From positions 1-61,783 of the IMG/VR virus record IMGVR_UViG_3300029822_000011: 61,783 nucleotides of DNA. One strand, written 5' to 3'. A program made the translations under genes and the position numbers. Shown here piece after piece: positions 1 to 33,882 of this stretch (position 1 is the stretch's first letter; every line of letters begins with the position of its first letter). Source of the DNA: a virus (Duplodnaviria; Caudoviricetes). The notes under the pieces are model-generated. The model saw only the letters and a list, made by a program, of their open reading frames with translations. It searched no databases and was not told where the DNA came from.

Positions 1-1
1 C

Positions 2-97
2 GCCTGCCCGGTGTGCGGGCGGACGTGGGATGAGCAGGCGGCGGCGTACCAGTGCTGCGCGGGCGGCGACGAGCCCGAGCAGGAGGCACAATCGTGA
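2..97 (+). CDS. 3' end of a small Cys-rich protein (truncated by window start)
   Basis: Open frame ACPVCGRTWDEQAAAYQCCAGGDEPEQEAQS* whose stop overlaps the GTG at 94. Confidence 0.55.
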   Translation, partial: ACPVCGRTWDEQAAAYQCCAGGDEPEQEAQS

Positions 98-493
98 GCA
101 CCAAGCCCGCTCCGCGATGCGCAGTCTGCGAGCGCCGACAGCAGAGACGGCAAGCGGTTCCGGTGCGTGGCTTGCGGTCATGCCGACTACGCTGACGTGA
201 ACGCAGCGAGGAACATCCTCGCCAGAGGTTTACTCGCCGGGAAGGCCCCGGAGAGTATCGCGGTGCGCGGCCCGGTGAAGCGCGAATCAGGGACGTTACC
301 TGTAGCGCCCGAGCGAACCTTGGGCCACTCTGTCGCGGTAGGGGGTGCAGTGCGCCCCACGCGCACGCGGAGTGCTGGCCAATGTGCAGCCAAACGAACC
401 GCCGCTGCGTTGGCATTGGAGGACGCGGAGCCAAAGAAACTTGAGTGCATAGGGCGCGTGAGAGAGGAGTGTGGGGCGAGTGATCTACCTTAG
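94..493 (+). pseudogene. tnpB: TnpB (IS200/IS605-type) C-terminal remnant, frameshifted
   Basis: AGGAGG at 81-86, GTG at 94 gives MSTKPAPRCAVC; after a frame change at ~130 it reads SADSRDGKRFRCVACGHADYADVNAARNILARG...GPVKRES = Zn ribbon, RuvC-III and a TnpB-like tail. RuvC-I/II absent. Confidence 0.8.
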
Positions 494-596
494 CGAAGCA
501 ACGACCTGCGCGTTCGTGCAGGGCTTCCTTGCGATCCGCGCAGACGTGAAGCACCCGCAGGCGGAGGATGGCGAGGACTCGTTCGGCGATCAGTAG
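480..596 (+). CDS. Possible 38-aa peptide
   Basis: GAGGAG at 464-469, GTG at 480, MIYLSEATTCAFVQGFLAIRADVKHPQAEDGEDSFGDQ*; no recognisable motif. Confidence 0.3.
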   Translation: MIYLSEATTCAFVQGFLAIRADVKHPQAEDGEDSFGDQ

Positions 597-605
597 CGAG
601 TGGTA

Positions 606-634
606 TTGACAAGCCGCCCCATATCATGTAAACT
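606..634 (+). promoter_or_regulatory. sigma70-type promoter upstream of the CRISPR leader RNA
   Basis: TTGACA (606-611), 17 nt, TAAACT (629-634); expected start ~641 coincides with the first base of a 13-bp stem. Confidence 0.8.
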
Positions 635-640
635 GAAAGT

Positions 641-871
641 GTCCCGGCAAGGACTTGAGAGGAGGTCGCGTTCACAATGCACATCAATAGGATTGCCCCC
701 GCGAAAGCGCGACCTCCGTTTCCTTGCCGGGACGAGAGCGTTGCTTTTCGCGGGGGTTTTGCATGTACGCTTACAAGACGCCTCGAACCGGCTGCGGTTG
801 GTTCGACTGCGGCTACTCTGAGCCGCGAGGCCGGGCAACGAGTCGTCCGGCAAACCTGCGCGCGCCCCAAG
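641..871 (+). ncRNA. Structured tracrRNA/omegaRNA-like scaffold contiguous with the first CRISPR repeat
   Basis: Stems 641-653/721-733 (13 bp), 661-670/708-717 (10 bp), 696-706/746-756 (11 bp), 783-789/800-806, 809-814/821-826, 831-836/845-850; anti-repeat CCTGCGCGCG (855-864) pairs with repeat bases 883-892 (one G-U). Confidence 0.7.
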
Positions 872-1095
872 CGTGCGATCCACGCGCGCGGGGCAGAGGA
901 CAACGGCACGTGACGACCGGTTCGACGTGCGATCCACGCGCGCGCGGGGCAGAGGTAACCGGGTCAGAGTGTCGTACATAGGGCACCGTGCGATCCACGC
1001 GCGCGCGGGGCAGAGGCAAGGCGGCCTGGGCGGCGCTGGAGAAGGCGGAGAGGCAGGCCTCGCAGCGTGCGATCCACGCGCGCGCGGGGCAGAGG
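872..1095 (+). CRISPR. Mini CRISPR array: 4 repeats, 3 spacers
   Basis: CGTGCGATCCACGCGCGCGCGGGGCAGAGG (30 nt) at 926-955, 987-1016, 1066-1095 and a 28-nt variant lacking one CG at 872-899; unique spacers of 26, 31 and 49 nt. Orientation inferred from promoter and anti-repeat, not certain. Confidence 0.9.
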
Positions 1096-1114
1096 AGGAG
1101 AGATAGCTAAAGCA

Positions 1115-2368
1115 ATGATAAAGACCGCGACATTCTATCTGGCCGACATGCCGCAGGAGGACAAGCGCCTGTGTCAACTCCTCTGCGATGAACTCGGCGC
1201 GGCGGGCTCCGCGATGGTTCGCGAGTGGTATCGCGCCTGTGACGAAGTAGATGGCGAGCGTATCAACTGGGGTGACGTGCAGGCGCGCGGTGTGCAGGTC
1301 GGCAAGCAGGCGTTTGCGGATCGTGGATACCGAGGCGAACTCGTCAATGACCTCCAGCGCGCAGAGTTCTTCGCTCGCTTCAAGACTGAGTTCAAGAAGA
1401 TTGCCGCAGGTGAGCGCGCCTCGCTCCCGTTCCCCGGCAGCGCGCCCTTCATCTTCCTGCGCATGGACCCCGGCCACGAAGTGGCTTCCGTCGTCAACGA
1501 GGGCGGCACCTGGTATCTGTGCAATCCGCACTTCTACCCCGGCGGTTCGCGCAGTGAAGACAACCGGCGCGAATGGCGGCTCAAGGACGTTGGCCGCAAC
1601 GGGTGGGGCTACGCGATCCTTGCCGAAGCAGAGAAGTTCGCCTGCATACGGATCATGCCCGACCGCAAGAAGCGCGGCTCGTGGGTTGTGAAGATCACCG
1701 TACACCTACCCGACGCCATAGCCCGAAGGGAGGTCGAGAAGCAGGAGGTGTGGGCGGGGATAGACTTGGGGCTGAACTGCCCGGCAGTCTTGTCTATCCC
1801 CGACCATCCCGACGGCGGCTTCGTTCGCTTCCTCGGCAATGACCAGTATCCACGCCTCTGGAAGCGCCTTGATGATTACGAGGAGCGCAAGCGCGTCCTC
1901 AATCGCGCAGGCAAGCGCGAAGCCGCCCGCGACCTGCGTGCGAAGATCACCGGCGTTCGACAGCATATCAACGAACTCATCAGCCGGGAGATTGTTGACC
2001 TCTGCCTCGCTATGCGCGTGACGGGTCTGCGCATGGAGGACCTCAAAGGCCTCGGTGTGGAGGGAAGCGGCAGGCTGAAGTTCTGGCCGCGGTTCCACCT
2101 GGTTACTCGAATTGAGCAGAAGTGCGGTGAGGTGGGGCTGACGTTCGAGAAGATCAAACCAGCGGGCACCTCGCAGACCTGCTCCTCCTGCGGCCATCGC
2201 GACAAGGACAACCGCAACGGCCCCGACTTTGTTTGCCTGCGGTGCGGTTTCGCCCGCCATGCCGACGTGAACGCAGCGAACAACATTGCCCGTGGCATGG
2301 ATGACTTCGACTTGCCGACGGGCGCAAGCGCGCCGACGAAGGCGCGGCGATTGGAGATTGCATCATGA
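1115..2368 (+). CDS. cas12f: Miniature type V CRISPR effector, Cas12f-like (TnpB-derived) RuvC nuclease, 417 aa
   Basis: RuvC-I GIDLG, RuvC-II MEDL, Zn ribbon CSSC...CLRC, RuvC-III HADVNAANNIA; starts 19 nt after the last repeat; size and segments (MIK start, RFK..KI..G..SLP, LRAKI...ISREIVD) resemble AsCas12f1 as recalled from memory. Subtype needs a phylogeny. Confidence 0.85.
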   Translation: MIKTATFYLADMPQEDKRLCQLLCDELGAAGSAMVREWYRACDEVDGERINWGDVQARGVQVGKQAFADRGYRGELVNDLQRAEFFARFKTEFKKIAAGERASLPFPGSAPFIFLRMDPGHEVASVVNEGGTWYLCNPHFYPGGSRSEDNRREWRLKDVGRNGWGYAILAEAEKFACIRIMPDRKKRGSWVVKITVHLPDAIARREVEKQEVWAGIDLGLNCPAVLSIPDHPDGGFVRFLGNDQYPRLWKRLDDYEERKRVLNRAGKREAARDLRAKITGVRQHINELISREIVDLCLAMRVTGLRMEDLKGLGVEGSGRLKFWPRFHLVTRIEQKCGEVGLTFEKIKPAGTSQTCSSCGHRDKDNRNGPDFVCLRCGFARHADVNAANNIARGMDDFDLPTGASAPTKARRLEIAS

Positions 2369-2636
2369 GAAGTGGCTGTCGGGCTGAGGTTTGACGGCTT
2401 GCGGTGATTGCGCACCGCGAGGATAGCCGATGGTTATCAAGTGCTGATACAGCATCGCAAGCGCAGATGATGGTGCAGAGATCGTGCTTGACGAAGACGA
2501 AGTGCAGAAGCTCAGGGAGGCGCTGGAGGAGCACGCGAAGAGCAGTCCGCAGGACTGACGCACACGCCGCACCTGCTGACGCGCATGGGGACGCACGGGG
2601 ATGCAGAGCGCGCAGCGAGAGGTTGCCGGGATGCGC

Positions 2637-2665
2637 TTGCAATCGACGAACGTTCGTGCTATAAT
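2637..2665 (+). promoter_or_regulatory. sigma70 promoter of the replication operon with palindromic operator in the spacer
   Basis: TTGCAA, 17 nt, TATAAT with TGn extension; perfect palindrome ACGAACGTTCGT at 2646-2657. Confidence 0.8.
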
Positions 2666-2826
2666 GGAGGTGTCTGGAGAGACACGGCGCGGCTTTGCGT
2701 TCTATGGCCGCCCACCACAATCTGACCGTGACCATATTGCCCTCGTGCAAACCTCCGCGCGTGTCTCTCCAGACTGCGTAGGCGGCCAGCGCGAGGGCTT
2801 TTCTTTGCTCCGGGGTGATCCAGTTC

Positions 2827-3978
2827 GTGGCTAACCCAAACCACTACGTCAAACTCTTCCTCGCAACGTTCGACGGGCAGTCCGCCGATATGCAGGCGCT
2901 CACTATCGGCCAGAAGTACGTGTGGCTGGCGCTCCTCGCATTTGCCCGAGCCTACAGACCGTATGGCATTCTGAACGCAGGAGAGCACGAGGGGCGTCCT
3001 ATGCCCGCGAGTGTCCGCCGCCTGGCTGACTGGGCTTCCGTTGGAGTCGGCACTGTGAGTGAGGCGCTGGCAATCTATGAGAAGAGAGGAATGATAAAGC
3101 AGGATAACCGGCGCAGTGATCCGTGTTGGGAGATCGTCAACTGGGAGAAGTGGCAGGTGTCTCACGGCCTCGAAGAGTGTTCGGGAGCCGAACAAGATGG
3201 TGTTCGGGAGGCGAACACACAGACTGTAGCGCGTTCGGGAGATGAACAGCACTGTTCGCCATCTGAACGCCAGTGTTCGGCAAATGAACAGCAGTGTTCA
3301 GATGGCGAACACCTATCTCCGGACGCAGAGTGTTCAGGAGGCGAACACAAACAGGTAGAAAGCCTAGGGGCGCAAGGGCTATTGGCCTTAGTATCTGACG
3401 AGCAGGGGTGTTCGCCTACCGAACACGATTCTCTAGACGTTAAGAGAACAACATTAACAGCAGAAGAAGGCACGGCTACTTCTGCTTCTCAAGTAGATCA
3501 GGCACGACAAATCCTCTGCACCCTTCTTCGCTTGCCCGATGGATCAATCGCGATTGATGCCGCGCTTATGGCGGCCTCTCGTGTTCATCCGCGCGCCGCC
3601 GATGTCCTTGTCCAAGAGTGTGGAGCACTTGCGGCGCGGGAAGCTCAAGGCGGCAAGCCGGTTGATCTACAATACCTCGCCTCGAATGTTCGCCAAGCGG
3701 CGGAGCGACTTGAGCAGGAAGAGACACTTCAAGACGACGACGAACGCCTCTTCGTTCGCTTGTTCGGCCCCCGCCCCCGGAACGCTTTCTGGACGCAGGA
3801 GCAGGCGTGGGATCGCGAACTGGTCGGGTTCCGAAAGGATCGCGAGCACTGGCTGTATTCGCACTGCGCCACCGGCTGCGAGGAGAAGTTGCGCAAGCGC
3901 GCAGAGGAGTGTGGTCTTTGGGGTGATGGTCTGATTGAGCGAGTGCGCGAGAAGATCATGGCGGGTGGTTACGAATGA
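2827..3978 (+). CDS. Phage replication initiator (replisome-organiser-like N-terminus)
   Basis: HYVKLF...QKYVWLALLAFA...HTH-like SVRRLADWASVGVGTVSEAL; internal iterons; directly upstream of helicase. Start could be 2815. Confidence 0.75.
   Translation: MANPNHYVKLFLATFDGQSADMQALTIGQKYVWLALLAFARAYRPYGILNAGEHEGRPMPASVRRLADWASVGVGTVSEALAIYEKRGMIKQDNRRSDPCWEIVNWEKWQVSHGLEECSGAEQDGVREANTQTVARSGDEQHCSPSERQCSANEQQCSDGEHLSPDAECSGGEHKQVESLGAQGLLALVSDEQGCSPTEHDSLDVKRTTLTAEEGTATSASQVDQARQILCTLLRLPDGSIAIDAALMAASRVHPRAADVLVQECGALAAREAQGGKPVDLQYLASNVRQAAERLEQEETLQDDDERLFVRLFGPRPRNAFWTQEQAWDRELVGFRKDREHWLYSHCATGCEEKLRKRAEECGLWGDGLIERVREKIMAGGYE
3178..3425. repeat. Eight TGTTC-N7-GAACA palindromic iterons (putative replication origin)
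   Basis: Copies begin at 3178, 3201, 3232, 3253, 3274, 3295, 3331, 3409 (two have one terminal mismatch); copies 3-6 have a 21-bp period; A-rich tract follows at ~3426-3465. Confidence 0.8.
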
Positions 3979-5423
3979 GATCAGCGCCGGAGGCCGTGAA
4001 CGCGCAGACGCCCGACGACGTGCGCCTACCTCCGTGGGATAAGGACGCGGAGCAGATCGTCCTCGGGTGTTGCTTGCGCAGTGAAAGCAAGTGGGATCAG
4101 CAGGAGTTCGTTCATGCCATCCTGACGTTGCAGCCATCCGATTTCTACCACGAGGCAGCGCAGCAGGTCTTCGCGGCGATCTGTGAAGTGTGGCAGCAGG
4201 GCAAGCCGGTTGCGGTGCCGACTGTGGCGGCGCGGCTGCGTGAGCGAGGACAACTCGAAGCGACAGGCGGGCGCGAGTGGTTGCGCAAAGTTGCTGACGA
4301 CGTATGGACAGGACAACATGTGCAGGCGGCAATCCGGGCGGTTGCTGGCAAGTCACGCTTGCGGAAGATGATCGTGTGGACGGGTGAGGCGCGGCAGAAA
4401 CTCTACACGCGCGAACATGAGCCGGACGCGGTGATCGCGGACCTTGCTGCCGAGGCGCTGCGCTTCGCCAATGCAGACGACGGGCCAATGACGGTGACGC
4501 CAGACGCCACGAAGACTGAGGACTGGCAGAGCATCAAGGAGGCGCTGAACGCGAACTTCGATCTGACACCCGCGCGGTTTGGCGTTGGCGAACTTGACTA
4601 CTACACAGGGGGCCTCGGCAACATGTTCCTCGTGCTGCTCATGGCGATGCAGGGGGGCGGGAAGACGCGCTTCGCGATGCACGCCACGCTCAAGAGCGCG
4701 CAGGAGTTTGCTCGCGTACCAGAAGACGAGCGGCCACATGCCCTCGTGTTTCCGCTGGAGGAGGGTCGGGAGCCGTGGATACGCAACGCAGTCGCGTGGT
4801 TGGCGCGCATAGACGCGATGAAGCTCATGCCAGGGCGCGCTCCAAAGCACGAGCGCGAAGCGATAGAGGCGAGGGCAGAACAGGCGCACCGGCAGTTGCT
4901 GGAACTCCCCGTGGTGATCGGGCAGAACGTGACGCGCGTGGAGCAGTTGACGACGCTCATTCAGATCGAAGCGCGGCGGCGCAAACTCGGCCTCGTGGTG
5001 ATTGACTACCTCCAGCGCCTCGGGCGGTCGGCAGATGAGGAGAGGCTTGCCCTCGCGCGGGTGTCGCTGGACTTGCAGACCCTCTCAGAACAGTTGAAGG
5101 TGCCGGTGTTGCTGCTTAGTCAGATGAGTTTCAGCAACGTGCCCGGCGATGTGTTGCCCTATGGTGGTCGCGGCGCAGCCTTCGATGCAAGCCTCGCTAT
5201 CATCCTCGAACGCACCGTAGACGACGAGGGGCGCAAGCGTGACGAGGGCACGCTGACGTGCTTCAAGGCGCGCCCCATCCCTGAGTTTCCGACAGTCAAG
5301 TTCCACGTCAACTACGCGAACGGCGGCCACTATTACGACGAGAAGGCATGGGCCATCGCGCAGGCAGATGAGGCGCGCATGGGTAGCCGCATGGAGGTGT
5401 CACGCGATGAACGCTACGGATAG
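3975..5423 (+). CDS. dnaB: DnaB-like replicative helicase
   Basis: N-domain PPWDKDAEQIVLG, Walker A AMQGGGKT, VVIDYLQ, VPVLLLSQ. Confidence 0.9.
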   Translation: MRSAPEAVNAQTPDDVRLPPWDKDAEQIVLGCCLRSESKWDQQEFVHAILTLQPSDFYHEAAQQVFAAICEVWQQGKPVAVPTVAARLRERGQLEATGGREWLRKVADDVWTGQHVQAAIRAVAGKSRLRKMIVWTGEARQKLYTREHEPDAVIADLAAEALRFANADDGPMTVTPDATKTEDWQSIKEALNANFDLTPARFGVGELDYYTGGLGNMFLVLLMAMQGGGKTRFAMHATLKSAQEFARVPEDERPHALVFPLEEGREPWIRNAVAWLARIDAMKLMPGRAPKHEREAIEARAEQAHRQLLELPVVIGQNVTRVEQLTTLIQIEARRRKLGLVVIDYLQRLGRSADEERLALARVSLDLQTLSEQLKVPVLLLSQMSFSNVPGDVLPYGGRGAAFDASLAIILERTVDDEGRKRDEGTLTCFKARPIPEFPTVKFHVNYANGGHYYDEKAWAIAQADEARMGSRMEVSRDERYG

Positions 5424-5679
5424 TCTGCCCGACGAGGACCAGGACGAAATACTCCGCGACCGGATCGTCTGGACGCGGCAGAAGCAACAGAAGATCGGGG
5501 AGTTGAGCGTAGACGATCAAGTGGGGATGCTTACGGCGCTTCAGGACCTGTGCGTAGTGCGGCAACGCAGGAGCGAGCGGTTTGCGCAAGCGGTACAGGA
5601 TGGATCGCTCTGCGCAGAGTGCCCGTGCAGGATAGTGGCAGAGTTGGCGGGAGGTGTCTGTCATGCAGGCAACACGTGA
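5407..5679 (+). CDS. Hypothetical protein
   Basis: GGAGG upstream, overlaps helicase end. Confidence 0.6.
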   Translation: MNATDSLPDEDQDEILRDRIVWTRQKQQKIGELSVDDQVGMLTALQDLCVVRQRRSERFAQAVQDGSLCAECPCRIVAELAGGVCHAGNT

Positions 5680-5824
5680 ACCTATGCCTACGGTAGACGT
5701 GGCCGCCGACGAGACGGTGTTCGTGCGGCAGGCGCTTGCGCGCGCGATTGACGAGGAGCGCGACGCCGACGCCCGCGCGCTGCTGGCCCGCCTGCGGCGC
5801 ATGGTGGGGAGGGAGCAGGAGTGA
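5663..5824 (+). CDS. Hypothetical 53-aa protein
   Basis: GGAGGTG RBS, MQATREPMPTVDVAADETVFVRQALARAIDEERD...; stop overlaps next GTG. Confidence 0.55.
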   Translation: MQATREPMPTVDVAADETVFVRQALARAIDEERDADARALLARLRRMVGREQE

Positions 5825-25951: not shown

Positions 25952-28402
25952 ATGCTCGTAGTTTTCCGATCGCCGCTCTCGCGTCTCTCCAAGGCGCAGA
26001 AGCGCCTCGGGCTCACCTGGGACGAGTCGGCCCATCCGCGCGGGCAGAGCCAGAACCCCGGCCAGTTCACGCGCAAGCCCGGCGCCACTGCGACGGCCCC
26101 GCAGGCCCCGAAGCCCGCGAACGGGCCGGCGGCGCCGGTGACCGGCGGGCGCAAGCCGCTTACCCCCCTCAATACCCCGACGCGCCTGAAGTTCGGCGTG
26201 GAGGATCTCGTCTTCACGGAGGCGGAGAAGGCACGCTCGCCTTATACCTGGCGGGTCAAGGAGATCACCCGGCGCATCGGCCATATCATGGAGCCGATGG
26301 CGATGTGGGCGCTCTCTGACGAGATGATTGACGCGCTGCGGCGGGAGGTCGTCGCCAACGATGATCAGGTCGGGCAGATGATGGTCGATATCCACCGCAA
26401 TATGCGGGCGAGCTTCTCGAAGGCGCAGAAAGACGACGCCCGCGGCGTGATTGTCGCGATGCTCAAGCAGGCCGTGGGGCGCGAGGAGGACGGGACGAAC
26501 GGTGAGGCCAACGGCAACGGCAACGGCAACGGGCATGTGCGCAAGGCGCTCGTGGCGCTAACGCTCGAGGAGGCCTTCCTGCCGCCGGCGGCACCTCGGA
26601 CCGGGGCCGTGCAGCGTTTCCTCGGCTGGCTGCGCAAGTCGCAGATGTCGCTCTTTGACGAGGACCTGCATCCCCGCCACGGCAAAGGTTCCCCGAAGGG
26701 CGGGCAGTTCGCGCCGAAAGGGAAGAAGCAGGCGGCGTCGGCAGGCGCGCAGGGCAACCTGTTCGCCGACAAGCCCGCACCCGCAGAGGTGCACAAGCCC
26801 GTGGCGGCAGCGGCGCCGGTAGAAGCAGCACCGGAGCCGGAGGTTGTGGCCGATGGCCTGACGGTGCGCCCGGCGCACTTCCGCCACTATACCGACGAGG
26901 GCCGGGTGGCGCACTGGGAGGTCTCGGAGGAGGAGTACCTGCAGGAGCGGGTGGCGCGCGAGCAGCGCAGGCTCGAGGGGCAGGTGCGCTACTACACGGA
27001 GCAGCTCGCGGCGATGGGGCCGCGCACAGGAGCGCGCAAGCGGGCGGAGGCAGAGGCCTTTCTCGGCATGTTCCAAAGGGACCTCGAGAAGTTCCGTGCG
27101 GAGGGGCCGAAGCCGGCGCATCTGCAGAAGTGGCGCGAGGATTACATCGCCCTCGTCGGCAAAGCTATCTCCAAGGGCGAGCCGGTCCCCGAGGAGGTCA
27201 TCGCGCAAAGGCCCGAGTTCGCAACGGCGCGCACGGCGCGCCAGCGCTATGAGAAGGGCCGCCACACCTCGTTTGCCAACCGCTCTGCGGCCATAAATGA
27301 CACGATGCAGCAGGCCGCCGGCTACAAGGTCAAGCGGCAGGACGGCAAGCCGATCACGCCTGAGCAGATTGAGGAGATCGAGGTCGGCGTGGCGGAGATC
27401 GCGTCCGTGGTCGGCGAGGACATCCGCAGGCTGTTGCGCGAAACCGACGCAACGATTGCTCATACCTCGGGGAAACATCCGTTCCTGCAGACGTCGGGCG
27501 GCTGTTACAGTCCGACGGAGAAGACAATCACGATGGGCACGATCAGTCAGGGCGGGAGGGAGGTGCGCGCGCTCGCGCACGAACTCGGGCACTGGCTCGA
27601 TATTGAGGCCGGCAAGCGCGAGGGCGTCAAGGTCTACGTCGGGGAAGGCAGCCGTGGGCGCGGCCAGTACTCATCCTCGCTGGCGGAGGGGGAGAACGCA
27701 TACATGGTCGGTGGCCTCATTGGACGGGCCAGGCGCCTGATCAACCACGAGTATGAGGTCACCCGCCTGCTCAAGAAGCCAAAGAAGAATATCTCCCCCG
27801 AGGAGCAGGAGGAACGCGCACTCGTGCGCGTGTCGCTTGGGGCCTACTGGCGGCGACCGCGAGAGATCTTCGCGCGGCTCTTTGAGCAGTACATCGCGAC
27901 GCGCATCGGCGACCCGAAGGTCGCGGCCCGCGGAGACTTGCACCGTGCGGCGGGCTGGTGGACCGCTGATGACTTCGCAGGCCTGGTGCCCGATATCGAG
28001 CGGGAGATCGCCCGGCGCATCGAGATCCTCGGTGGCGACGCTGCCGAGTTCGAGCAGCAGGCGCCTCCTCTCGAACCCCCTCGGGACGTGTCAGCGCCGG
28101 AGAAAGTCGGCAAAGCGTCGGGCGCTGGGGGCACCCGCGAGGAATGGCACATAGCCCTTCCTAAGGTGCTGAGCCTCGGCGCAGAGATGACCGCGCTGGT
28201 GGCGATCAACAGCACTCGCCCGAACGACGGTATCCTGACATACGAGGCCGTTCTGGCCGAACTTGAGGGGAACCCCTACGCGGGCGACGTGGAGGGTGCG
28301 CGTCGCGCGCTGCAGGACGCGGCGGATACGCTAGAGCGCAAGCGCACCCCCGTCCGCAAGTCGATCATCGTTGCCCGCCGTCGTCAGGAGGTTGTCGTAT
28401 GA
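25952..28402 (+). CDS. Polyvalent-type protein: zincin-like HExxH motif plus LPD1-like region, two HPR...GQF tags
   Basis: ALAHELGHWLD; YWRRPREIFARLFEQYI; WDESAHPRGQSQNPGQF and FDEDLHPRHGKGSPKGGQF. Confidence 0.7.
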   Translation: MLVVFRSPLSRLSKAQKRLGLTWDESAHPRGQSQNPGQFTRKPGATATAPQAPKPANGPAAPVTGGRKPLTPLNTPTRLKFGVEDLVFTEAEKARSPYTWRVKEITRRIGHIMEPMAMWALSDEMIDALRREVVANDDQVGQMMVDIHRNMRASFSKAQKDDARGVIVAMLKQAVGREEDGTNGEANGNGNGNGHVRKALVALTLEEAFLPPAAPRTGAVQRFLGWLRKSQMSLFDEDLHPRHGKGSPKGGQFAPKGKKQAASAGAQGNLFADKPAPAEVHKPVAAAAPVEAAPEPEVVADGLTVRPAHFRHYTDEGRVAHWEVSEEEYLQERVAREQRRLEGQVRYYTEQLAAMGPRTGARKRAEAEAFLGMFQRDLEKFRAEGPKPAHLQKWREDYIALVGKAISKGEPVPEEVIAQRPEFATARTARQRYEKGRHTSFANRSAAINDTMQQAAGYKVKRQDGKPITPEQIEEIEVGVAEIASVVGEDIRRLLRETDATIAHTSGKHPFLQTSGGCYSPTEKTITMGTISQGGREVRALAHELGHWLDIEAGKREGVKVYVGEGSRGRGQYSSSLAEGENAYMVGGLIGRARRLINHEYEVTRLLKKPKKNISPEEQEERALVRVSLGAYWRRPREIFARLFEQYIATRIGDPKVAARGDLHRAAGWWTADDFAGLVPDIEREIARRIEILGGDAAEFEQQAPPLEPPRDVSAPEKVGKASGAGGTREEWHIALPKVLSLGAEMTALVAINSTRPNDGILTYEAVLAELEGNPYAGDVEGARRALQDAADTLERKRTPVRKSIIVARRRQEVVV

Positions 28403-31400
28403 AGCCGCTCGTGGTCACGAAGAAGACGCAGGCTCCGGCTGCCGTGCAGGGCGGGGCCGAACGCGAGTATCCCTGGCCGATCATCTCGGCCAAGTCCTGC
28501 TGTCATCTCGACTGGTATCCGATGCTCGGCGACCTCGAGGATGGCACCGATGATTACGAGTGCGAGGTCTGCGCCCTGTGCGGCGCGGTGCGCAACCTGC
28601 AGCGGTCTAACGGCGGTGGGCAGGCCCCGGTCATGCGCAAGGGCGTGACGCTCCTCGTCAAGGCGGCAGGCGGCGGCTACGTCGACTGGAAAAACGACCC
28701 GCGCTACCGCTGGATCACGATGCGCCCGCACGGCGAGGATGGCGAGGGCTACCCGGTGCTCATTCGCATGGATGACCCGAAGGGCGAGAAAGGCTCGGGG
28801 ACCGTCGTCGGCGGCGCCGGCGGCTCGATGAACTACCGGCGCGTGACGGGGGTGCGCTCGAAGGCCGACTACCAGACCGAGGCGCGGTCGCGACGCGCGG
28901 AGAGGGAGTCCAAGGCGGAGGCGCGCACAGCGAAGCGGGTGCAGGAGGCCCGCGACGCCGGACTGACCGATGCCGACCTCGCCGAAGCCGAACGGCAGCG
29001 CAAGGAGGCCCGCGAGCAGTTGCAGGAGGAGGCCACACTCGCTGAGGCCGAACACCTCGCGCACCTTGCAGAGATCATGGGGTGGGAAGTCCCGGCACTG
29101 TCGGAGACACAGCTTGAGGGCATGACCACGAAGACGAAAGACCGCATCGAGCGAGAGCGGCGCCGCCGGATGCTCAAAGAGGCCGAGAAAGCCGTTCAGA
29201 ATGTGCAGGACTCGGTGATCAAAGAGCACGACCGGGCCGTGACGGAGGCGATCGGGCAGGAGCGCGTGGAGGATCTCGCCTTTGACGAAGTTGACGACCG
29301 CGGCCTCGGCTACGTCGCGAAGGTAGAGACGCTCGCCAAAGAGGCCGGGATGACAAAGGCAGAGGCCCGCGCCCTCTCCCGTGCAACCACGGACGCCTCC
29401 CTCGAGCGTGCCGAGGACGAGGGATATATCAAGTCGGCGATCAAGGCACGCATGTACATCGACATGCTTCAGCAGGCCGGGGCGGATGCGCGGACGGAGG
29501 ACAAGCCGTTCCGTGAGCGGGGACTGCACAAGGTCGGGGAGGCGCCGGAACATCTCGAACCCGACCAGGCGCGGGCGCTGCTGGTCGCGCACGAGCAGTA
29601 CAAGCAGAAGCAGCGTGAGTTCCAGGCGAAGGAGCGCGAGATCACAGACGCCGCCCCGCAGAATGTCGTGGACGTGGCGGTGGTCACGCGCGGCGACGCC
29701 CTCGTGCGTATGGGGAAGATGACCGACGAAGAGGCTATGGCGAAAGTCGAGGAGAGCCTGCAGGCGCGGGCGCGTATCACGGCCGCCGACCGGCTCCTCT
29801 CGCGCATTGAGGAGCTTGAGGGTGGCGTCGAGTCGGTCGAGCAGCACCTTCTTGAGGGCCGCCACGTCCAGCTTCAGGAGGTGGCGCAGGCCGTCTTCTC
29901 TCAGCCGCTCACGATGCGCCGGGAGGTCCTCGACCTGCTCGGGCCGGAGGCGGGCGGGACCCTCATGGCCTACCTCATGCGGCAGGAACTCGGCGAGGAT
30001 GAGCGCGAGGCCGTGCGAACGGCGCTGCGCGAGGAGCACATCGAGACACAGGTCGACCGGGCGCGCACGGCCCTTGAGGACGCACAGGAGCACTTTGAGG
30101 CGGCGCAGGCGGCCTTCGCCGGCTTCGGCACCGTCGGCGAGCTCGGGGCGGAGGGGCTGGAGGCGGCGTCAGCGGCCAAGGCCGAGAAGCTGCGCGAGCT
30201 GCGCGAAGCCCGGCAGATCCTCGGCGTCACCCTTGGCCGGCTGCAGATGCTCGGCTCCATGAACGCGGCGCTTGCCGAGGGGGAGGGGCGCACACTCGAT
30301 GTCCCCCTCGGGCAGATCACCGGCGCGCAGGCGTGGCAGGTGGGGGCGGCGCTTGGCCTCGCCCGCGGCGAGTATGAGGTGCAATCGGACGGCCCGAACA
30401 AGTACATCCGGATCTCCCGCGACGCGTTCGGCAAGCTGATCGAAAGCCCCGACCCGGAGCAGAAGGAGCAGTATGAGGCGGCCGTGGCGATCAAGCGCGG
30501 CGACTTCGATGAGGACGGCTGGCTTGCCGAGGGGCTGATGAAGCGCCCGAGTGAGAAGTATTACGACGACCCGGACTTCACCGCCGGGTGGGGCGTGGAT
30601 GCGGCCGAACTGCTTGAGGGCAAGCACGGTGCCGAGTTTGAGGCCGGTATCCGTGAGTATGCCGGTAGGATGCTCGCCAACGGCGGCGCCGCGGGGATCG
30701 GCTCCCTGCGCCAGAACATGCTCTCGGCGCTGTGGCAGGCGGACAACCTCGACGACCGGCAGCGGGCTGAGTTCGCCGAGGTAGTGGCGAAGGTGTTCCC
30801 GGCTGATGCCGCAGAGGATAACTGGACGGGCGTTGCCGAGGAGCTGGTCAAGCCGTTCATCGAGCAGTCCAATGCCGAACGCGCCGCACTCGACGCGCAG
30901 AATATCGACGTGGTATCGGCCCGCGACCCCATCCACCGGGCGCTGCAGGCCTGCCCGGAGGGGAAGGTCGCGTTTACCCCCATCAGCCGCATGACGCCGC
31001 AGGACAAGGCGCTGCTCCGGCAGTACTTCTGGAACAAGCTGACGGATGAGAAGCCGCCGTCGGCAACGGAGAGTCGGGCGGCGAAGCAGGAGCAGGCGGA
31101 GGCTGCCGAGGAAGTCGTCGCGACGCAAATGGATATCTTCGGGAACCCCGTGGAGATCAAGCGCGGGGAGACGGAGGCGTTCCAGGAGAAGCAGGCGGAG
31201 GCCGATGCCGACCGCGGCGATCACGCATGGGCGCGTTATGTGAAGGCGATGAAGGGCGTAGGCAACGCCTACGCGACCGTGCAGTCGCTCATCCAGGGCG
31301 ACCTCGCCGAATCGTTCGCGAAGCACTACGCCCGCGAGACCGGCCGGGGCCTGCGCACGGCGCCGGCGGATGTCCCGAACGCCCTGCGGCATGTGATCGG

Positions 31401-33882
31401 CCTCATGCCCAAAGACGCCCTCGAGCGGGTGCTCGACGCGGACAACGGCGCGCTGCGCGAGATGTACGAGGGGCTGCGGCGGCGCGACACGCGCGGGCGC
31501 TACTCCGAGGGCGAGGTCGCCAACCTCGCCGTGCGGATCCTCGAGAAAGCGAAGAAGATGCAGCTCACGTTGTTCGGGGACGCATCGCCCGGGGCTCAGC
31601 GGCTCTCGATCGGCGCGACGGCAGAGAAGCAGCTCAAGCAGGCGTGGGCGCAGGTGGCCCCGCACTTTGACCCTGAGCGGCCGGCCCACATCATCGAGAA
31701 CCTCGCCCAGAGCGGGCCGAAGTACGTCCACCAGCAGCGGGCGATCAAGATGCTCGAGAAGGCGAAGCGCATCGGCCTGCACCACTCGACGGGCTGTATT
31801 GCCGGTACGACGCTGCTCCTCGACCCGGTGACAGGTGCGGCGAAGACGGTGCGTGAGCACCACGAGCAGCGTACGCACCCGCGCGTGTTGGCCGTGCGGC
31901 CCGACGGCTCATTCGCCGTCGCGGAGGCTGACGTGCCGTTCGTGAAGGGCGTGACGCGTCTGCTGACCGTGCGCACTGAGGCAGGGCGCGAGGTTACGGT
32001 TGCGCCGAACCACCTCTTCCTGACGGAGCGTGGCTGGCGTCCTGCCGCTGACCTGACTGCTGGAGATTCTCTATGCGCGGTCGGCGCCGCCACGGGATCT
32101 GATGCCACTCGACCAGCTTCCGAAAGGTCGATACACGAGTGGGACCGGGTGTCAAATGTGGTCGAGGCTGAGGTGGAGGAGTACTTCGACTTCGAGGTGC
32201 CTGTCTACCACAACTACGTCGCGCACGGCCTTGTCCACCACAACAGCGGCAAATCGCTCGCGTCGCTCGGCGCGTTCACCCACCTGCACTCGCAGGGTAA
32301 AGTGCAGCGCGGCCTGTACATGGTCCCCCCCAAGATCCAGGCGCAGTTCGGCGGCGAGATCAACGCCTACGCCGAACCGGGCCGCTATTCGCACTTCTCC
32401 GACCCGTCGGCGAGCGCGAGCGAGCGGCGGGCGGCCTACGCGGACCCGGAGAAGCAAATGGTGGTTATCTCGCACCAGGCGTGGCGCGATGACGTGACCT
32501 GGGCCGTGGCGCAGGAGCGCTTCGGCGGCAACGAGCAGGAGGCTGCCGACTGGCTGCGCACCGCAGAACGCGGGGAGACCGCAGAGGCGGTGCGCGCGGC
32601 GGTGGACGCGCAGGGCTGGTCGTTTGATATGAACGTGGTGGATGAGGGCCACGACACCCTCAACCGCAAGGGCAAGCCCGACTCGCGGCTCGCCCGGGTT
32701 ATCGACGCCACGACCGACCGGGCCGAGTACATGATGACGATGACCGCGACGCCCGTCAAAAACGACACCTCCGAGGCCTACGACCTGCTGCGCAAGGTGC
32801 GACCCGACAAGTTCCCTGCAGACGGCTACGAGGACTTCCGGCGTCGCTACGCCCTCAACACGGAGGCGAACCGGGAGGCCCTGCAGCGGCTCGTGGCACC
32901 CTATTTCTACGCGAAGAACGTGGATACGGGCGTGGAGGAGCGGCACTCGTACACCGGCACCGACCTCTCGCCGTGGCAGAAGGAGCGCTACCGGCAGGTG
33001 CTGGAGGACTACAACACCGCCCGCTCCGCCCCCGAGGGCAGCGACGCGCGGCGCGAGGCGATCCGCGCGCTCGTGCCTGATGAGTCCCTCCGGGATCTCT
33101 CGCCGGAGCAGGTGGCGCAGAAACTCGACGACCTCGGCGGGGCGCTTGGCTTCACGCGCGACCGGGCGATTGCGCGGGTGCTTGAACACGCTCCCGCCGA
33201 ACACAATCCGCGGATACAGAAGGTCGTGGAGATCGTCAAGCGCCACGCGGGCAAAGACGACGACGGCGGCCAGGTGCCGGGGCTGATCTTCTCGCAGTCG
33301 CTTGAGAGTGTGCGGCTGCTCGCCGACGCGCTGAAGAAAGAGGGGCTGCGGGTCGGGGTGATCACCGGGGAACTCTCCGGTGCCGACAGCGAGCTTCGCC
33401 GGATGGATTTCAACGCCGATGGTGGCCGCGGCAAGGGCGATGATCTCGCGCAGGAGGCGGCGACGCGCCGGAAGATGGCGAAGTATGACATCATCGTCGG
33501 CAGCGGTGCGGCGGGAACCGGGCTGAACATGGAGCGGGCGCGCTTCCTCGTTCATTACGATCAGCCGTGGACGGCCAAGGAAATTGCACAGAGAAACGGG
33601 CGCCAGAACCGCCTCTCGCAGCACTGGGGCGAGGTGGAGGTGCATACGCTCGGCACCGACGTGCCCTATGACCGCCGCCGGCGGGAGCTGGTGGAGAGAA
33701 AGGCGGGCCTGATGACGACGTTCATGGAGCCGACTGAGCAGCTTGACGACACGGGCCTGGCGCGGCGGATACGTGAGGCGCGGGCCGAACGGCTGTCGGA
33801 CGCGACGGAGACGGAGCTTGGGTTCGTGCCCCCGCGGGCGGGCGGGGGCGGCGCAGGCGCTATGCAGGAGGCGGCCACATGA
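28399..33882 (+). CDS. Large SNF2/SF2 helicase-domain protein (1827 aa) with intein
   Basis: Walker A HSTG/SGKS split by intein, VVDEGH, MTATP, GTGLN, QRNGRQNR. Confidence 0.88.
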   Translation: MKPLVVTKKTQAPAAVQGGAEREYPWPIISAKSCCHLDWYPMLGDLEDGTDDYECEVCALCGAVRNLQRSNGGGQAPVMRKGVTLLVKAAGGGYVDWKNDPRYRWITMRPHGEDGEGYPVLIRMDDPKGEKGSGTVVGGAGGSMNYRRVTGVRSKADYQTEARSRRAERESKAEARTAKRVQEARDAGLTDADLAEAERQRKEAREQLQEEATLAEAEHLAHLAEIMGWEVPALSETQLEGMTTKTKDRIERERRRRMLKEAEKAVQNVQDSVIKEHDRAVTEAIGQERVEDLAFDEVDDRGLGYVAKVETLAKEAGMTKAEARALSRATTDASLERAEDEGYIKSAIKARMYIDMLQQAGADARTEDKPFRERGLHKVGEAPEHLEPDQARALLVAHEQYKQKQREFQAKEREITDAAPQNVVDVAVVTRGDALVRMGKMTDEEAMAKVEESLQARARITAADRLLSRIEELEGGVESVEQHLLEGRHVQLQEVAQAVFSQPLTMRREVLDLLGPEAGGTLMAYLMRQELGEDEREAVRTALREEHIETQVDRARTALEDAQEHFEAAQAAFAGFGTVGELGAEGLEAASAAKAEKLRELREARQILGVTLGRLQMLGSMNAALAEGEGRTLDVPLGQITGAQAWQVGAALGLARGEYEVQSDGPNKYIRISRDAFGKLIESPDPEQKEQYEAAVAIKRGDFDEDGWLAEGLMKRPSEKYYDDPDFTAGWGVDAAELLEGKHGAEFEAGIREYAGRMLANGGAAGIGSLRQNMLSALWQADNLDDRQRAEFAEVVAKVFPADAAEDNWTGVAEELVKPFIEQSNAERAALDAQNIDVVSARDPIHRALQACPEGKVAFTPISRMTPQDKALLRQYFWNKLTDEKPPSATESRAAKQEQAEAAEEVVATQMDIFGNPVEIKRGETEAFQEKQAEADADRGDHAWARYVKAMKGVGNAYATVQSLIQGDLAESFAKHYARETGRGLRTAPADVPNALRHVIGLMPKDALERVLDADNGALREMYEGLRRRDTRGRYSEGEVANLAVRILEKAKKMQLTLFGDASPGAQRLSIGATAEKQLKQAWAQVAPHFDPERPAHIIENLAQSGPKYVHQQRAIKMLEKAKRIGLHHSTGCIAGTTLLLDPVTGAAKTVREHHEQRTHPRVLAVRPDGSFAVAEADVPFVKGVTRLLTVRTEAGREVTVAPNHLFLTERGWRPAADLTAGDSLCAVGAATGSDATRPASERSIHEWDRVSNVVEAEVEEYFDFEVPVYHNYVAHGLVHHNSGKSLASLGAFTHLHSQGKVQRGLYMVPPKIQAQFGGEINAYAEPGRYSHFSDPSASASERRAAYADPEKQMVVISHQAWRDDVTWAVAQERFGGNEQEAADWLRTAERGETAEAVRAAVDAQGWSFDMNVVDEGHDTLNRKGKPDSRLARVIDATTDRAEYMMTMTATPVKNDTSEAYDLLRKVRPDKFPADGYEDFRRRYALNTEANREALQRLVAPYFYAKNVDTGVEERHSYTGTDLSPWQKERYRQVLEDYNTARSAPEGSDARREAIRALVPDESLRDLSPEQVAQKLDDLGGALGFTRDRAIARVLEHAPAEHNPRIQKVVEIVKRHAGKDDDGGQVPGLIFSQSLESVRLLADALKKEGLRVGVITGELSGADSELRRMDFNADGGRGKGDDLAQEAATRRKMAKYDIIVGSGAAGTGLNMERARFLVHYDQPWTAKEIAQRNGRQNRLSQHWGEVEVHTLGTDVPYDRRRRELVERKAGLMTTFMEPTEQLDDTGLARRIREARAERLSDATETELGFVPPRAGGGGAGAMQEAAT
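31795..32244 (+). mobile_element. Mini-intein (150 aa, no homing endonuclease)
   Basis: Starts CIAGTT, block B TVAPNHLFLT, ends YFDFEV..HNYVAHGLVHHN followed by Ser. Confidence 0.92.

Follow-up and report, generated by a model that had tools for sequence, protein, structure and literature searches.

According to one report, the greater Cas12f branch associates with CRISPR arrays only, and the array normally lies downstream, the rule being the order gene, scaffold, array (PMC10691335). Compact type V systems without adaptation genes have already been published from phages, namely Cas12r, the phage TranC9 clade and the systems of a landfill phage survey. Cas12r, found in the Thermus Lalka phages, is a TnpB-derived effector of 564 amino acids (aa) that is accompanied by a short array of degenerate 29-bp repeats; the CRISPR RNA (crRNA) alone suffices for its function, it targets integrative elements, and a role in conflicts between mobile elements has been proposed for it (bioRxiv 10.64898/2026.04.20.719267). 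The TranC systems are TnpB-sized nucleases with arrays of 3-20 repeats, no accessory cas genes and a guide that is divided between a tracrRNA (trans-activating CRISPR RNA) and a crRNA (PMC13565253; bioRxiv 10.64898/2026.03.27.714800), the repeats being 32-38 bp long and one clade, the phage TranC9, coming from a Caudoviricetes genome (bioRxiv 10.64898/2026.03.27.714800). In the landfill survey, 114 of the 450 viral elements with arrays encode a type V homologue, none of them with adaptation genes, and TnpB-like proteins of 401 and 433 aa are found beside arrays, as well as a candidate new subtype with a 474-aa representative (PMC12607003). Here, we describe a locus in the first 2.5 kb of a linear IMG/VR virus record of 61.8 kb (IMGVR_UViG_3300029822_000011, positions 1 to 61,783; hereafter referred to as the window), in which a predicted 417-aa RNA-guided nuclease gene is preceded by a conserved RNA scaffold and a short repeat array. 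We consider it likely that the phage carries here a miniature type V system that lacks adaptation genes, belongs to the V-F/V-U (TranC-like) kind and is probably functional. The core of the original prediction for this DNA, a compact nuclease of the Cas12f/TnpB type with a tracrRNA-like scaffold and a short array, is borne out by the profile matches, the predicted fold and the conservation of the scaffold.

The protein had been predicted to carry all three catalytic acidic residues of a RuvC nuclease. These residues (D217, E308 and D384), as well as the four zinc-ribbon cysteines (C356, C359, C374 and C377), are indeed invariant in 16/16 family sequences. The longest reading frame reaches a GTG at 1067, within repeat 4 of the array, and the ATG at 1115 fits the N termini of the homologues. 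In Pfam, the protein matches Cas12f1-like_TNB (PF07282) with an E-value of 8.5e-19, OrfB_IS605 staying below its cut-off, and the best PADLOC models are Cas12u3 (2.8e-39) and Cas12f (2e-38). A word-indexed search of 5.8 billion proteins (39 matches among 5570 candidates) defines a rare family of 15 clusters with 45-94% identity at a coverage of at least 94%, below which the scores fall to those of ordinary TnpB-like proteins, which are about 30% identical across half the length. When 1.84 billion representatives are searched exhaustively with the profile, 64 proteins are found at E<=1e-30, and three more distant full-length relatives (P0040-P0042) are added. When compared with the sequences of solved structures (chain names being taken from PMC13186708 and from the Foldseek titles), the family profile matches OsCas12f (1.4e-36), AsCas12f (2.4e-36), CnCas12f1 (8.7e-29) and Un1Cas12f (3.9e-27), and its matches with ISDra2 TnpB (8.5e-6) and LaTranC (1.3e-5) are far weaker. 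The same is seen with the AlphaFold2 model (predicted local distance difference test score, pLDDT, 83.4): in Foldseek, chains of AsCas12f or OsCas12f occupy all of the first 10 rows, the best of them with an E-value of 3.4e-22 and a template modelling (TM) score of 0.52 (about 0.5 for the top matches, with 19-23% identity), and a TnpB protein appears at rank 20. The prediction of a homodimer from two copies, Cas12f typically acting as a dimer on one guide RNA, gives a median score of 0.38, the mark being 0.42, and counts neither for nor against the assignment.

The relationships within this group have been addressed with a FastTree phylogeny of 166 sequences, consisting of the family and of the 340-560-aa matches of two protein searches, with no curated references, such as Cas12f2, Cas12f3 or V-U sequences, among them. 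In this tree, the family together with P0040 is monophyletic (support 1.0), P0041 and P0042 form its sister group (0.995), and P0079, the marker of AsCas12f-like proteins (AsCas12f match 8.4e-107), lies in a separate clade (0.93). Judged from sequence and model, the effector appears to be TnpB-derived and nearest to the Cas12f1/V-U3 group. It is Cas12f1-like by fold and profile, and because of its placement in the tree it is regarded as a lineage of its own in the TnpB/Cas12f bush, outside the AsCas12f clade. The earlier suggestion of a separate lineage is therefore retained as far as it concerns this well-supported clade (1.0), and given up as far as it relied on the gene order, which is no marker of lineage. 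No description of this protein family has been found in the literature, and as its sequences may be present in supplementary lists, it is not claimed to be unpublished.

Two relatives with flanking DNA are available for comparison. The first, L084, is a 4.7-kb metagenome contig, the sole relative among the matches listed in the metagenome-contig search, in which the protein is 66% identical and the gene is followed by an intergenic stretch of 115 nucleotides (nt) and then by three repeats of 31-32 nt. The second, L169, is an IMG/VR viral contig, and its 474-aa protein has 33% identity over the full length (E 2e-58); here the end of the gene lies within the scaffold in part, an overlap typical of omega-RNAs, and the scaffold is followed by four regular 30-nt repeats with a spacing of 60-61 nt. 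A search of viral contigs with the family alignment gives one distant locus. Arrays are thus present in 3/3 loci of the wider clade with flanking DNA, with four repeats in the window, three in L084 and four in L169. The genes flanking L084 and L169 are unrelated to the neighbours in the window, and therefore the module moves between contexts. The L169 protein has the same length as the representative of the candidate subtype from the landfill survey. Two further features of these contigs may be mentioned. In L084 (2435-2461), a 12-nt partial copy of the repeat 3' end, located after the last repeat, enters the ribosome-binding stretch and start codon of the next open reading frame (ORF), which encodes an unrelated 727-aa protein without a Pfam match; this arrangement mirrors that of repeat 4 abutting the nuclease gene in the window. 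In L169, an ORF 1.4 kb downstream of the array (4748-5692) encodes a phage exonuclease (phrog_69, 4.6e-30) and also has a faint match to phrog_1706, labelled 'CRISPR/Cas system associated' (4.4e-4).

The scaffold is conserved between these loci. The window core (Table 1) and the 115-nt post-gene stretch of L084 share three hairpins with compensatory changes, and the covariance model built from the two (CM R1) matches L084 at 2166-2248 (96.9 bits) and also L169 at 3013-3112 (30.8-33.3 bits). At E<0.1, the model has four matches in 198 sources (98, L169 and 99 more), all of them in the window, L084 and L169. In the four aligned copies, 72/72 cells are paired and 11 of the 18 pairs have changes on both sides; this pairing is reached by 0/500 shuffles, and slid controls are at most 51% paired. 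A search of IMG/VR with the scaffold motif pattern gives 0 matches, and Rfam, at the gathering threshold, gives 0 matches over the window. The low-GC IMG/VR contig L164, found with a repeat-end pattern, is dismissed as a chance hit (one copy, no TnpB homologue in 9.8 kb, no CM R1 match); its single 20-nt repeat-end motif ends an intergenic stretch of about 170 nt that is led by a promoter-like site (region 1995-2200, minus strand), and this is probably chance as well.

The 3' tail of the scaffold is predicted to be an anti-repeat. Since the RNA is CG-rich, the duplex test with the whole scaffold is uninformative and the tail alone has been used in its place. In the window, the tail-repeat duplex has a predicted energy of -26.2 kcal/mol, and in 3/3 loci the cognate repeat is the best partner of the tail among the three repeats compared; shuffled repeats pair equally well in 0/500 cases for L169 and in 19/500 cases for L084. 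The predicted combination of a scaffold with a repeat-matching tail is a tracrRNA-like arrangement, as far as sequence can tell. The gap between the anti-repeat and the first repeat is 4-11 nt in the window and L084, and with the two so close together, the first unit is able to adopt the fold of an engineered single guide. A pseudoknot between the loop of stem B and the 3' end of the repeat (CUCUG:CAGAG in the window and L084, AAUC:GAUU in L169; 4-5 nt, read by eye) is only an idea.

The array itself agrees with the four repeats originally noted: repeats 2-4 are three exact copies of a very CG-rich 29-nt sequence (0 expected in 100 shuffles), and repeat 1 is a 27-nt copy that is one CG short of the others. 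No further copy exists elsewhere in the 61.8-kb window. The window and L084 share a conserved loop motif and a conserved 3' part of the repeat. A likeness of window 553-595 to the L084 repeat plus spacer has been dropped, 11/100 shuffles having scored equally high. The array ends 19 nt before the start codon of the nuclease gene, and the GGAGG-type ribosome-binding stretch of this gene starts inside the end of repeat 4. Upstream, the consensus-like promoter that had been noted is present; two promoter-like sites are found in 1-3200, compared with a mean of 0.3 in 50 shuffles, and this one is the sole such site on its strand between 1 and 2636. The structured leader of about 230 nt in the original prediction is only partly upheld: the fold is strong (minimum free energy, MFE, of 640-900 is -136 kcal/mol as compared with -107.6 +/- 4.9 for shuffles, z -5.8, equalled by 0/200), but the first hairpin, about 95 nt (641-733), is absent from the relatives, and the conserved core begins at 781. 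This hairpin is specific to the phage, having no counterpart in L084 or L169, where local alignments score like those of shuffles; the same holds for alignments of the leader (606-785) with the 3' ends of the gene.

Table 1. Features of the locus in the window, ordered by position
Feature	Position	Strand	Basis
Truncated TnpB/Cas12f-like pseudogene, C-terminal zinc-ribbon/RuvC-III part	about 98..378	+	six-frame match
Stretch missing from one landfill contig of run X3 (presence/absence variant)	538..2460	.	contig joins 537 to 2461
Sigma-70-type promoter-like site, TTGACA-17-TAAACT	606..634	+	10/12 positions match
Long leader hairpin, specific to this phage	641..733	+	MFE structure of 640-900
Three-hairpin scaffold (tracrRNA-like core)	781..862	+	CM R1, 95.5 bits
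Predicted anti-repeat tail	851..872	+	leads directly into repeat 1
Array, 4 repeats / 3 spacers	873..1095	+	repeats 873-899 (27 nt), 927-955, 988-1016, 1067-1095 (29 nt)
Spacers	900-926 (27 nt), 956-987 (32 nt), 1017-1066 (50 nt)	+	
Predicted Cas12f-like RNA-guided nuclease gene, 417 aa	1115..2368	+	ORF, profiles, alignment, fold
Decayed second scaffold copy	2370..2449	+	CM R1, 25.8 bits over the full model; right after the nuclease stop codon

When compared with Cas12f1 (type V-F1, formerly V-U3; AsCas12f 422 aa, OsCas12f 433 aa), the locus is similar in size class, type V-F effectors being miniature proteins of about 400-700 aa, in domain order, predicted fold and best profiles of its protein, in its short array and lack of adaptation genes and, in the relatives of the window, in having a scaffold of about 100-150 nt between gene and array. 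It differs in that the protein has only 19-23% identity in the structural alignment and is placed outside the AsCas12f-like clade, in that the repeat is 29 nt and very CG-rich, and in that the nuclease gene has its working scaffold and array ahead of it, within its 5' untranslated region (UTR), with the anti-repeat running directly into repeat 1. As far as the preprint describes it, Cas12r shares with this locus a phage-encoded TnpB-derived nuclease, a short array, irregular spacers and the absence of adaptation genes, whereas the window has a conserved scaffold with an anti-repeat and Cas12r works with the crRNA only; sequence homology between the 417-aa protein and LalCas12r is not detectable (BLASTP E 1.7), and neither the family profile nor PF07282 has a match in the Lalka27a genome. 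The likeness to TranC, whose clades are compared here by their description only, consists of a TnpB-sized nuclease with an array, a predicted division of the guide into tracrRNA and crRNA, the lack of accessory cas genes and the occurrence in a phage, and the neighbouring pseudogene has a repeat-like end that fits the idea of an array arising from right-end RNA; the LaTranC match is weak (1.3e-5), and the 29-nt repeat is to be compared with the 32-38 bp of TranC.

The original prediction had regarded the order in which scaffold and array come first as the possible mark of a lineage. This is not sustained, as both L084 and L169 have the order gene, scaffold, array, and the window itself has a decayed scaffold at the canonical position, immediately behind the gene. 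The match of CM R1 to this second copy has an E-value of 9e-5 in the search of 98 sources and of 4.4e-7 in a 3.2-kb search; its three stems are retained and its loop and tail motifs are lost. Because of these two observations, the array-first order of the window is interpreted as a local rearrangement and not as a lineage marker. The decayed scaffold had been overlooked in the original prediction, as had the pseudogene about 98-378. The latter begins directly after the stop codon of the preceding ORF; it matches residues 362-400 of the 417-aa protein at 128-247 (49% identity, E 1.6e-6), it contains one frameshift by reading of the sequence, and behind it come a decayed, scaffold-like stretch, with a weak CM R1 match at 319-402 (11.3 bits), and a repeat-like copy (345-378, 68% identical to the repeat).

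The locus recurs in other metagenomes. Runs of 18 studies share words with the 1.9-kb stretch; the contigs of four runs have been aligned to the module, and the evidence of habitat is taken from these alone, such Logan contigs indicating presence and not abundance. One DNA run each from leachate, a landfill and a bioreactor has contigs that are 85-99% alike to the gene and scaffold. In contigs of the runs X3, X4 and X20, repeat 1 possesses the CG that is missing from it in the window, and in one landfill contig the loop between the anti-repeat and the repeat is replaced by 22 other letters. The X3 landfill contig that joins 537 to 2461 skips 1923 nt, with seven letters that fit both sides and a shorter side of 35 letters; therefore, a form without the whole module seems to exist. 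Loose ends and back-joints in two runs suggest that in some genomes the gene is followed, after a short linker, by the stretch starting near 378 or 574, so that the gene would precede the scaffold; this adjacency is read from overlapping ends and not from one assembled sequence. At 378, where the repeat-like tail of the pseudogene ends, the match of several contigs begins or breaks off, and metagenome contigs carry the reading frame of this pseudogene further upstream than the window does. It seems that an intact relative of the 98-378 element circulates in the same habitats. One contig of depth 2, from an RNA library of an anaerobic digester, covers 707-955 and continues with letters like those of spacer 3 instead of spacer 2; transcription and the loss of a unit are weakly indicated by this contig, DNA carry-over being possible.

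Several observations speak against the interpretation as a functional type V system. The spacers have no protospacer in the window (up to 3 mismatches, the spacers matching themselves alone), the array, searched with blastn against the INPHARED phages and PLSDB plasmids, has short GC-rich matches at chance level only, and spacers 1 and 2 have 0 matches as exact 20-mers in IMG/VR. The array is tiny, with irregular spacer lengths (27, 32 and 50 nt), and the contig variants show the loss of an array unit and a point change, with no clear gain of a new spacer. On the RNA side, the evidence is this one contig of depth 2, and DNA may be present in the library from which it comes. As for the scaffold, the alignment used for covariation has four rows, one of which is a decayed copy, and it has been fitted to the model; the anti-repeat pairing in the window, taken alone, is marginally above chance for such a CG-rich sequence (29/500 shuffles pair equally well), and for the duplex of the whole scaffold with the repeat, shuffles pair equally well in 206/300 (window) and 71/300 (L084) cases. 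With respect to the protein, the sole NCBIfam model above its cut-off is the generic guided_TnpB (108.8 bits, cut-off 100), the family falls in no characterised Cas12f clade of the tree, where the support of the joining backbone is 0.27, and TnpB-annotated proteins are as near in patristic distance as P0079 (3.7 versus 4.3). The proposed comparison of the spacers with IMG/VR, done by exact 20-mers, yields no convincing target. For spacer 3, two exact-20-mer matches have been set aside, L167 (20 nt only) and L168 (28/32 by count), both being GC-rich coding DNA and probably chance. An L169 spacer finds its own contig only in the same search, and cross-targeting among the 249 locus records is not seen.

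The first alternative is that of an ordinary selfish TnpB (OMEGA) element that has inserted into the phage, the repeats being duplicated right-end or omega-RNA tails and the guides serving homing or retention. The protein shares with the TnpB/omega-RNA systems of IS200/IS605 and IS607 the RuvC and zinc-ribbon core and the generic guided_TnpB match, the guide follows the 3' end of the scaffold, and the scaffold of L169 is positioned at the gene's 3' end or overlaps it. The truncated relative directly upstream, which resembles the type with a single omega-RNA, has a repeat-like end and is extended by contigs of other metagenomes that break at 378; this fits an insertion element, as do the contig that lacks the whole 538-2460 stretch with seven shared letters at the joint, the varying neighbours and order of gene and scaffold/array among the window, L084, L169 and apparently X3 and X4, and the proximity of TnpB-annotated proteins, which in the tree are as near as the Cas12f-like ones. 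In spite of this, the alternative is judged improbable. There are 3-4 repeat-spacer units with unrelated spacers in 3/3 loci, the L169 array being regular (spacing 60-61), instead of one guide defined by the flank, and the scaffold tail co-varies with the repeat in the way of tracrRNA:crRNA pairs. A Y1 transposase is absent from the window: as in the original prediction, six-frame searches of this 39%-complete record have no match at E<=1 to Cas1, Cas2, Cas4 or Y1_Tnp (PF01797), the serine-recombinase (IS607-type) TnpA not having been searched. Unlike a proliferating insertion sequence, the element is also not multicopy in what was searched, with one intact copy per locus, no close relative in one scan of the contigs of 185,579 species genomes (nothing above 38-60% partial identity) and no relative at E<=1e-40 in 364 Deinococcota genomes, and its profile match to ISDra2 TnpB is, as mentioned, far weaker than that to Cas12f.

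It might also be that the nuclease gene is intact and that the array has no present role as a guide, being either a relic in decay or a repeat prone to assembly errors, with the upstream RNA serving as a 5' UTR only. The irregular spacers including the 50-nt one, repeat 1 being 2 nt short and the lack of targets agree with such a relic, and the decayed scaffold and pseudogene nearby have the appearance of an eroding region. Against this, 3/4 repeats are base-identical, the window scaffold scores as well as that of L084 (95.5 and 96.9 bits), and the repeat 3' part and loop motif have been conserved with L084 at 66% protein identity. The scaffold-array stretch moreover recurs in other metagenomes with few differences (one over 465-865 in record 4 of run X2), and we regard this explanation as quite improbable. 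A system that acts mainly as an RNA-guided regulator, be it of genes of the phage or the host or of the nuclease's own mRNA, instead of as an interference nuclease, is very improbable, since the three RuvC acidic residues are invariant in 16/16 sequences, unlike in nuclease-dead repressors, and no spacer matches a promoter in the window, although domesticated TnpB repressors are known from two reports (10.1101/2023.11.30.569447; PMC13565253), repeat 4 ends within the ribosome-binding stretch of the nuclease gene and the repeat-derived end in L084 likewise abuts the site of the next gene.

If the locus is taken as a working type V system, the following mechanism can be proposed. From the promoter at 606, a single transcript would be made that contains the leader hairpin, the scaffold, the array with its four repeats and three spacers, and the mRNA of the nuclease. 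The scaffold tail, being complementary to the repeat and joined to repeat 1, would make the first unit a natural single-guide RNA, and the later repeat-spacer units, once processed, would use this tail as their pairing partner in trans. The complex of protein and RNA would then cut spacer-matching DNA beside a short 5' motif by means of the RuvC site (D217, E308, D384). The targets may be competing mobile elements in the same host, by analogy with the phage Cas12r and phage TranC9 systems, and it is this analogy alone that makes a part in conflicts among mobile elements likely. The array would probably have grown as an omega-RNA-like guide had its 3' end duplicated, and not via Cas1-Cas2. A bolder form of this proposal sees the locus as a snapshot of the transition from TnpB to CRISPR: a 1.9-kb presence/absence cassette in which scaffold and repeat 1 form a natural single guide, duplicated units act in trans without Cas1-Cas2, the nuclease tunes its own translation by binding or cutting its 5' UTR, where the last repeat overlaps the ribosome-binding site, and the decayed neighbour of the insertion sequence (IS) type, with its homologous repeat-like end, preserves the ancestral state. 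In this complete form it is thought unlikely.

The window is a fragment of a tailed phage with a G+C content of 60-70% and a CheckV completeness of 39%, and encodes a large terminase (TerL), a portal, a major head protein, a DnaB-like helicase, a DnaD-like loader and a DNA methyltransferase. The nearest cultured relatives of the terminase are those of the Lalka phages, which are distant (25-26% identity). The position of the module just upstream of the phage replication genes is as originally noted, the genes of the DnaD-like loader (2815-3978) and the DnaB-like helicase (3975-5423) following that of the nuclease. Ahead of the loader gene there is a promoter-like sequence, TTGCAA-17-TATAAT with an upstream TG (2637-2665), and a perfect 15-nt inverted repeat (2672-2686 and 2760-2774, 73 nt apart) is located just 5' of the same gene; this stretch could be an operator, a leader RNA or part of an origin. 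Further away, an ORF of 1827 aa (28399-33882) matches the phage helicase family phrog_62 with its C-terminal third (5.7e-62), and the Thermus phage Lalka27a has a comparably huge 'putative helicase' among its tail genes.

Within 2.5 kb, the locus presents a natural experiment: it combines the working scaffold-array with a decayed relative of the IS type and, at the ancestral position, with a scaffold that has decayed, and there are metagenome variants that differ in order and content. Its local points of interest are the fusion of the anti-repeat with repeat 1 and the location of the array in the 5' UTR of the nuclease gene, where the last repeat abuts the ribosome-binding stretch. The locus fills in a known picture, and the current understanding is not overturned by it. 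If active, the 417-aa nuclease, whose scaffold measures about 90-150 nt, would belong to the smaller of the known programmable DNA cutters. Together with Cas12r and TranC9, there would then be three independent phage lineages of type V systems without adaptation genes, in support of the view that intermediates between transposons and CRISPR systems habitually reside in phages.

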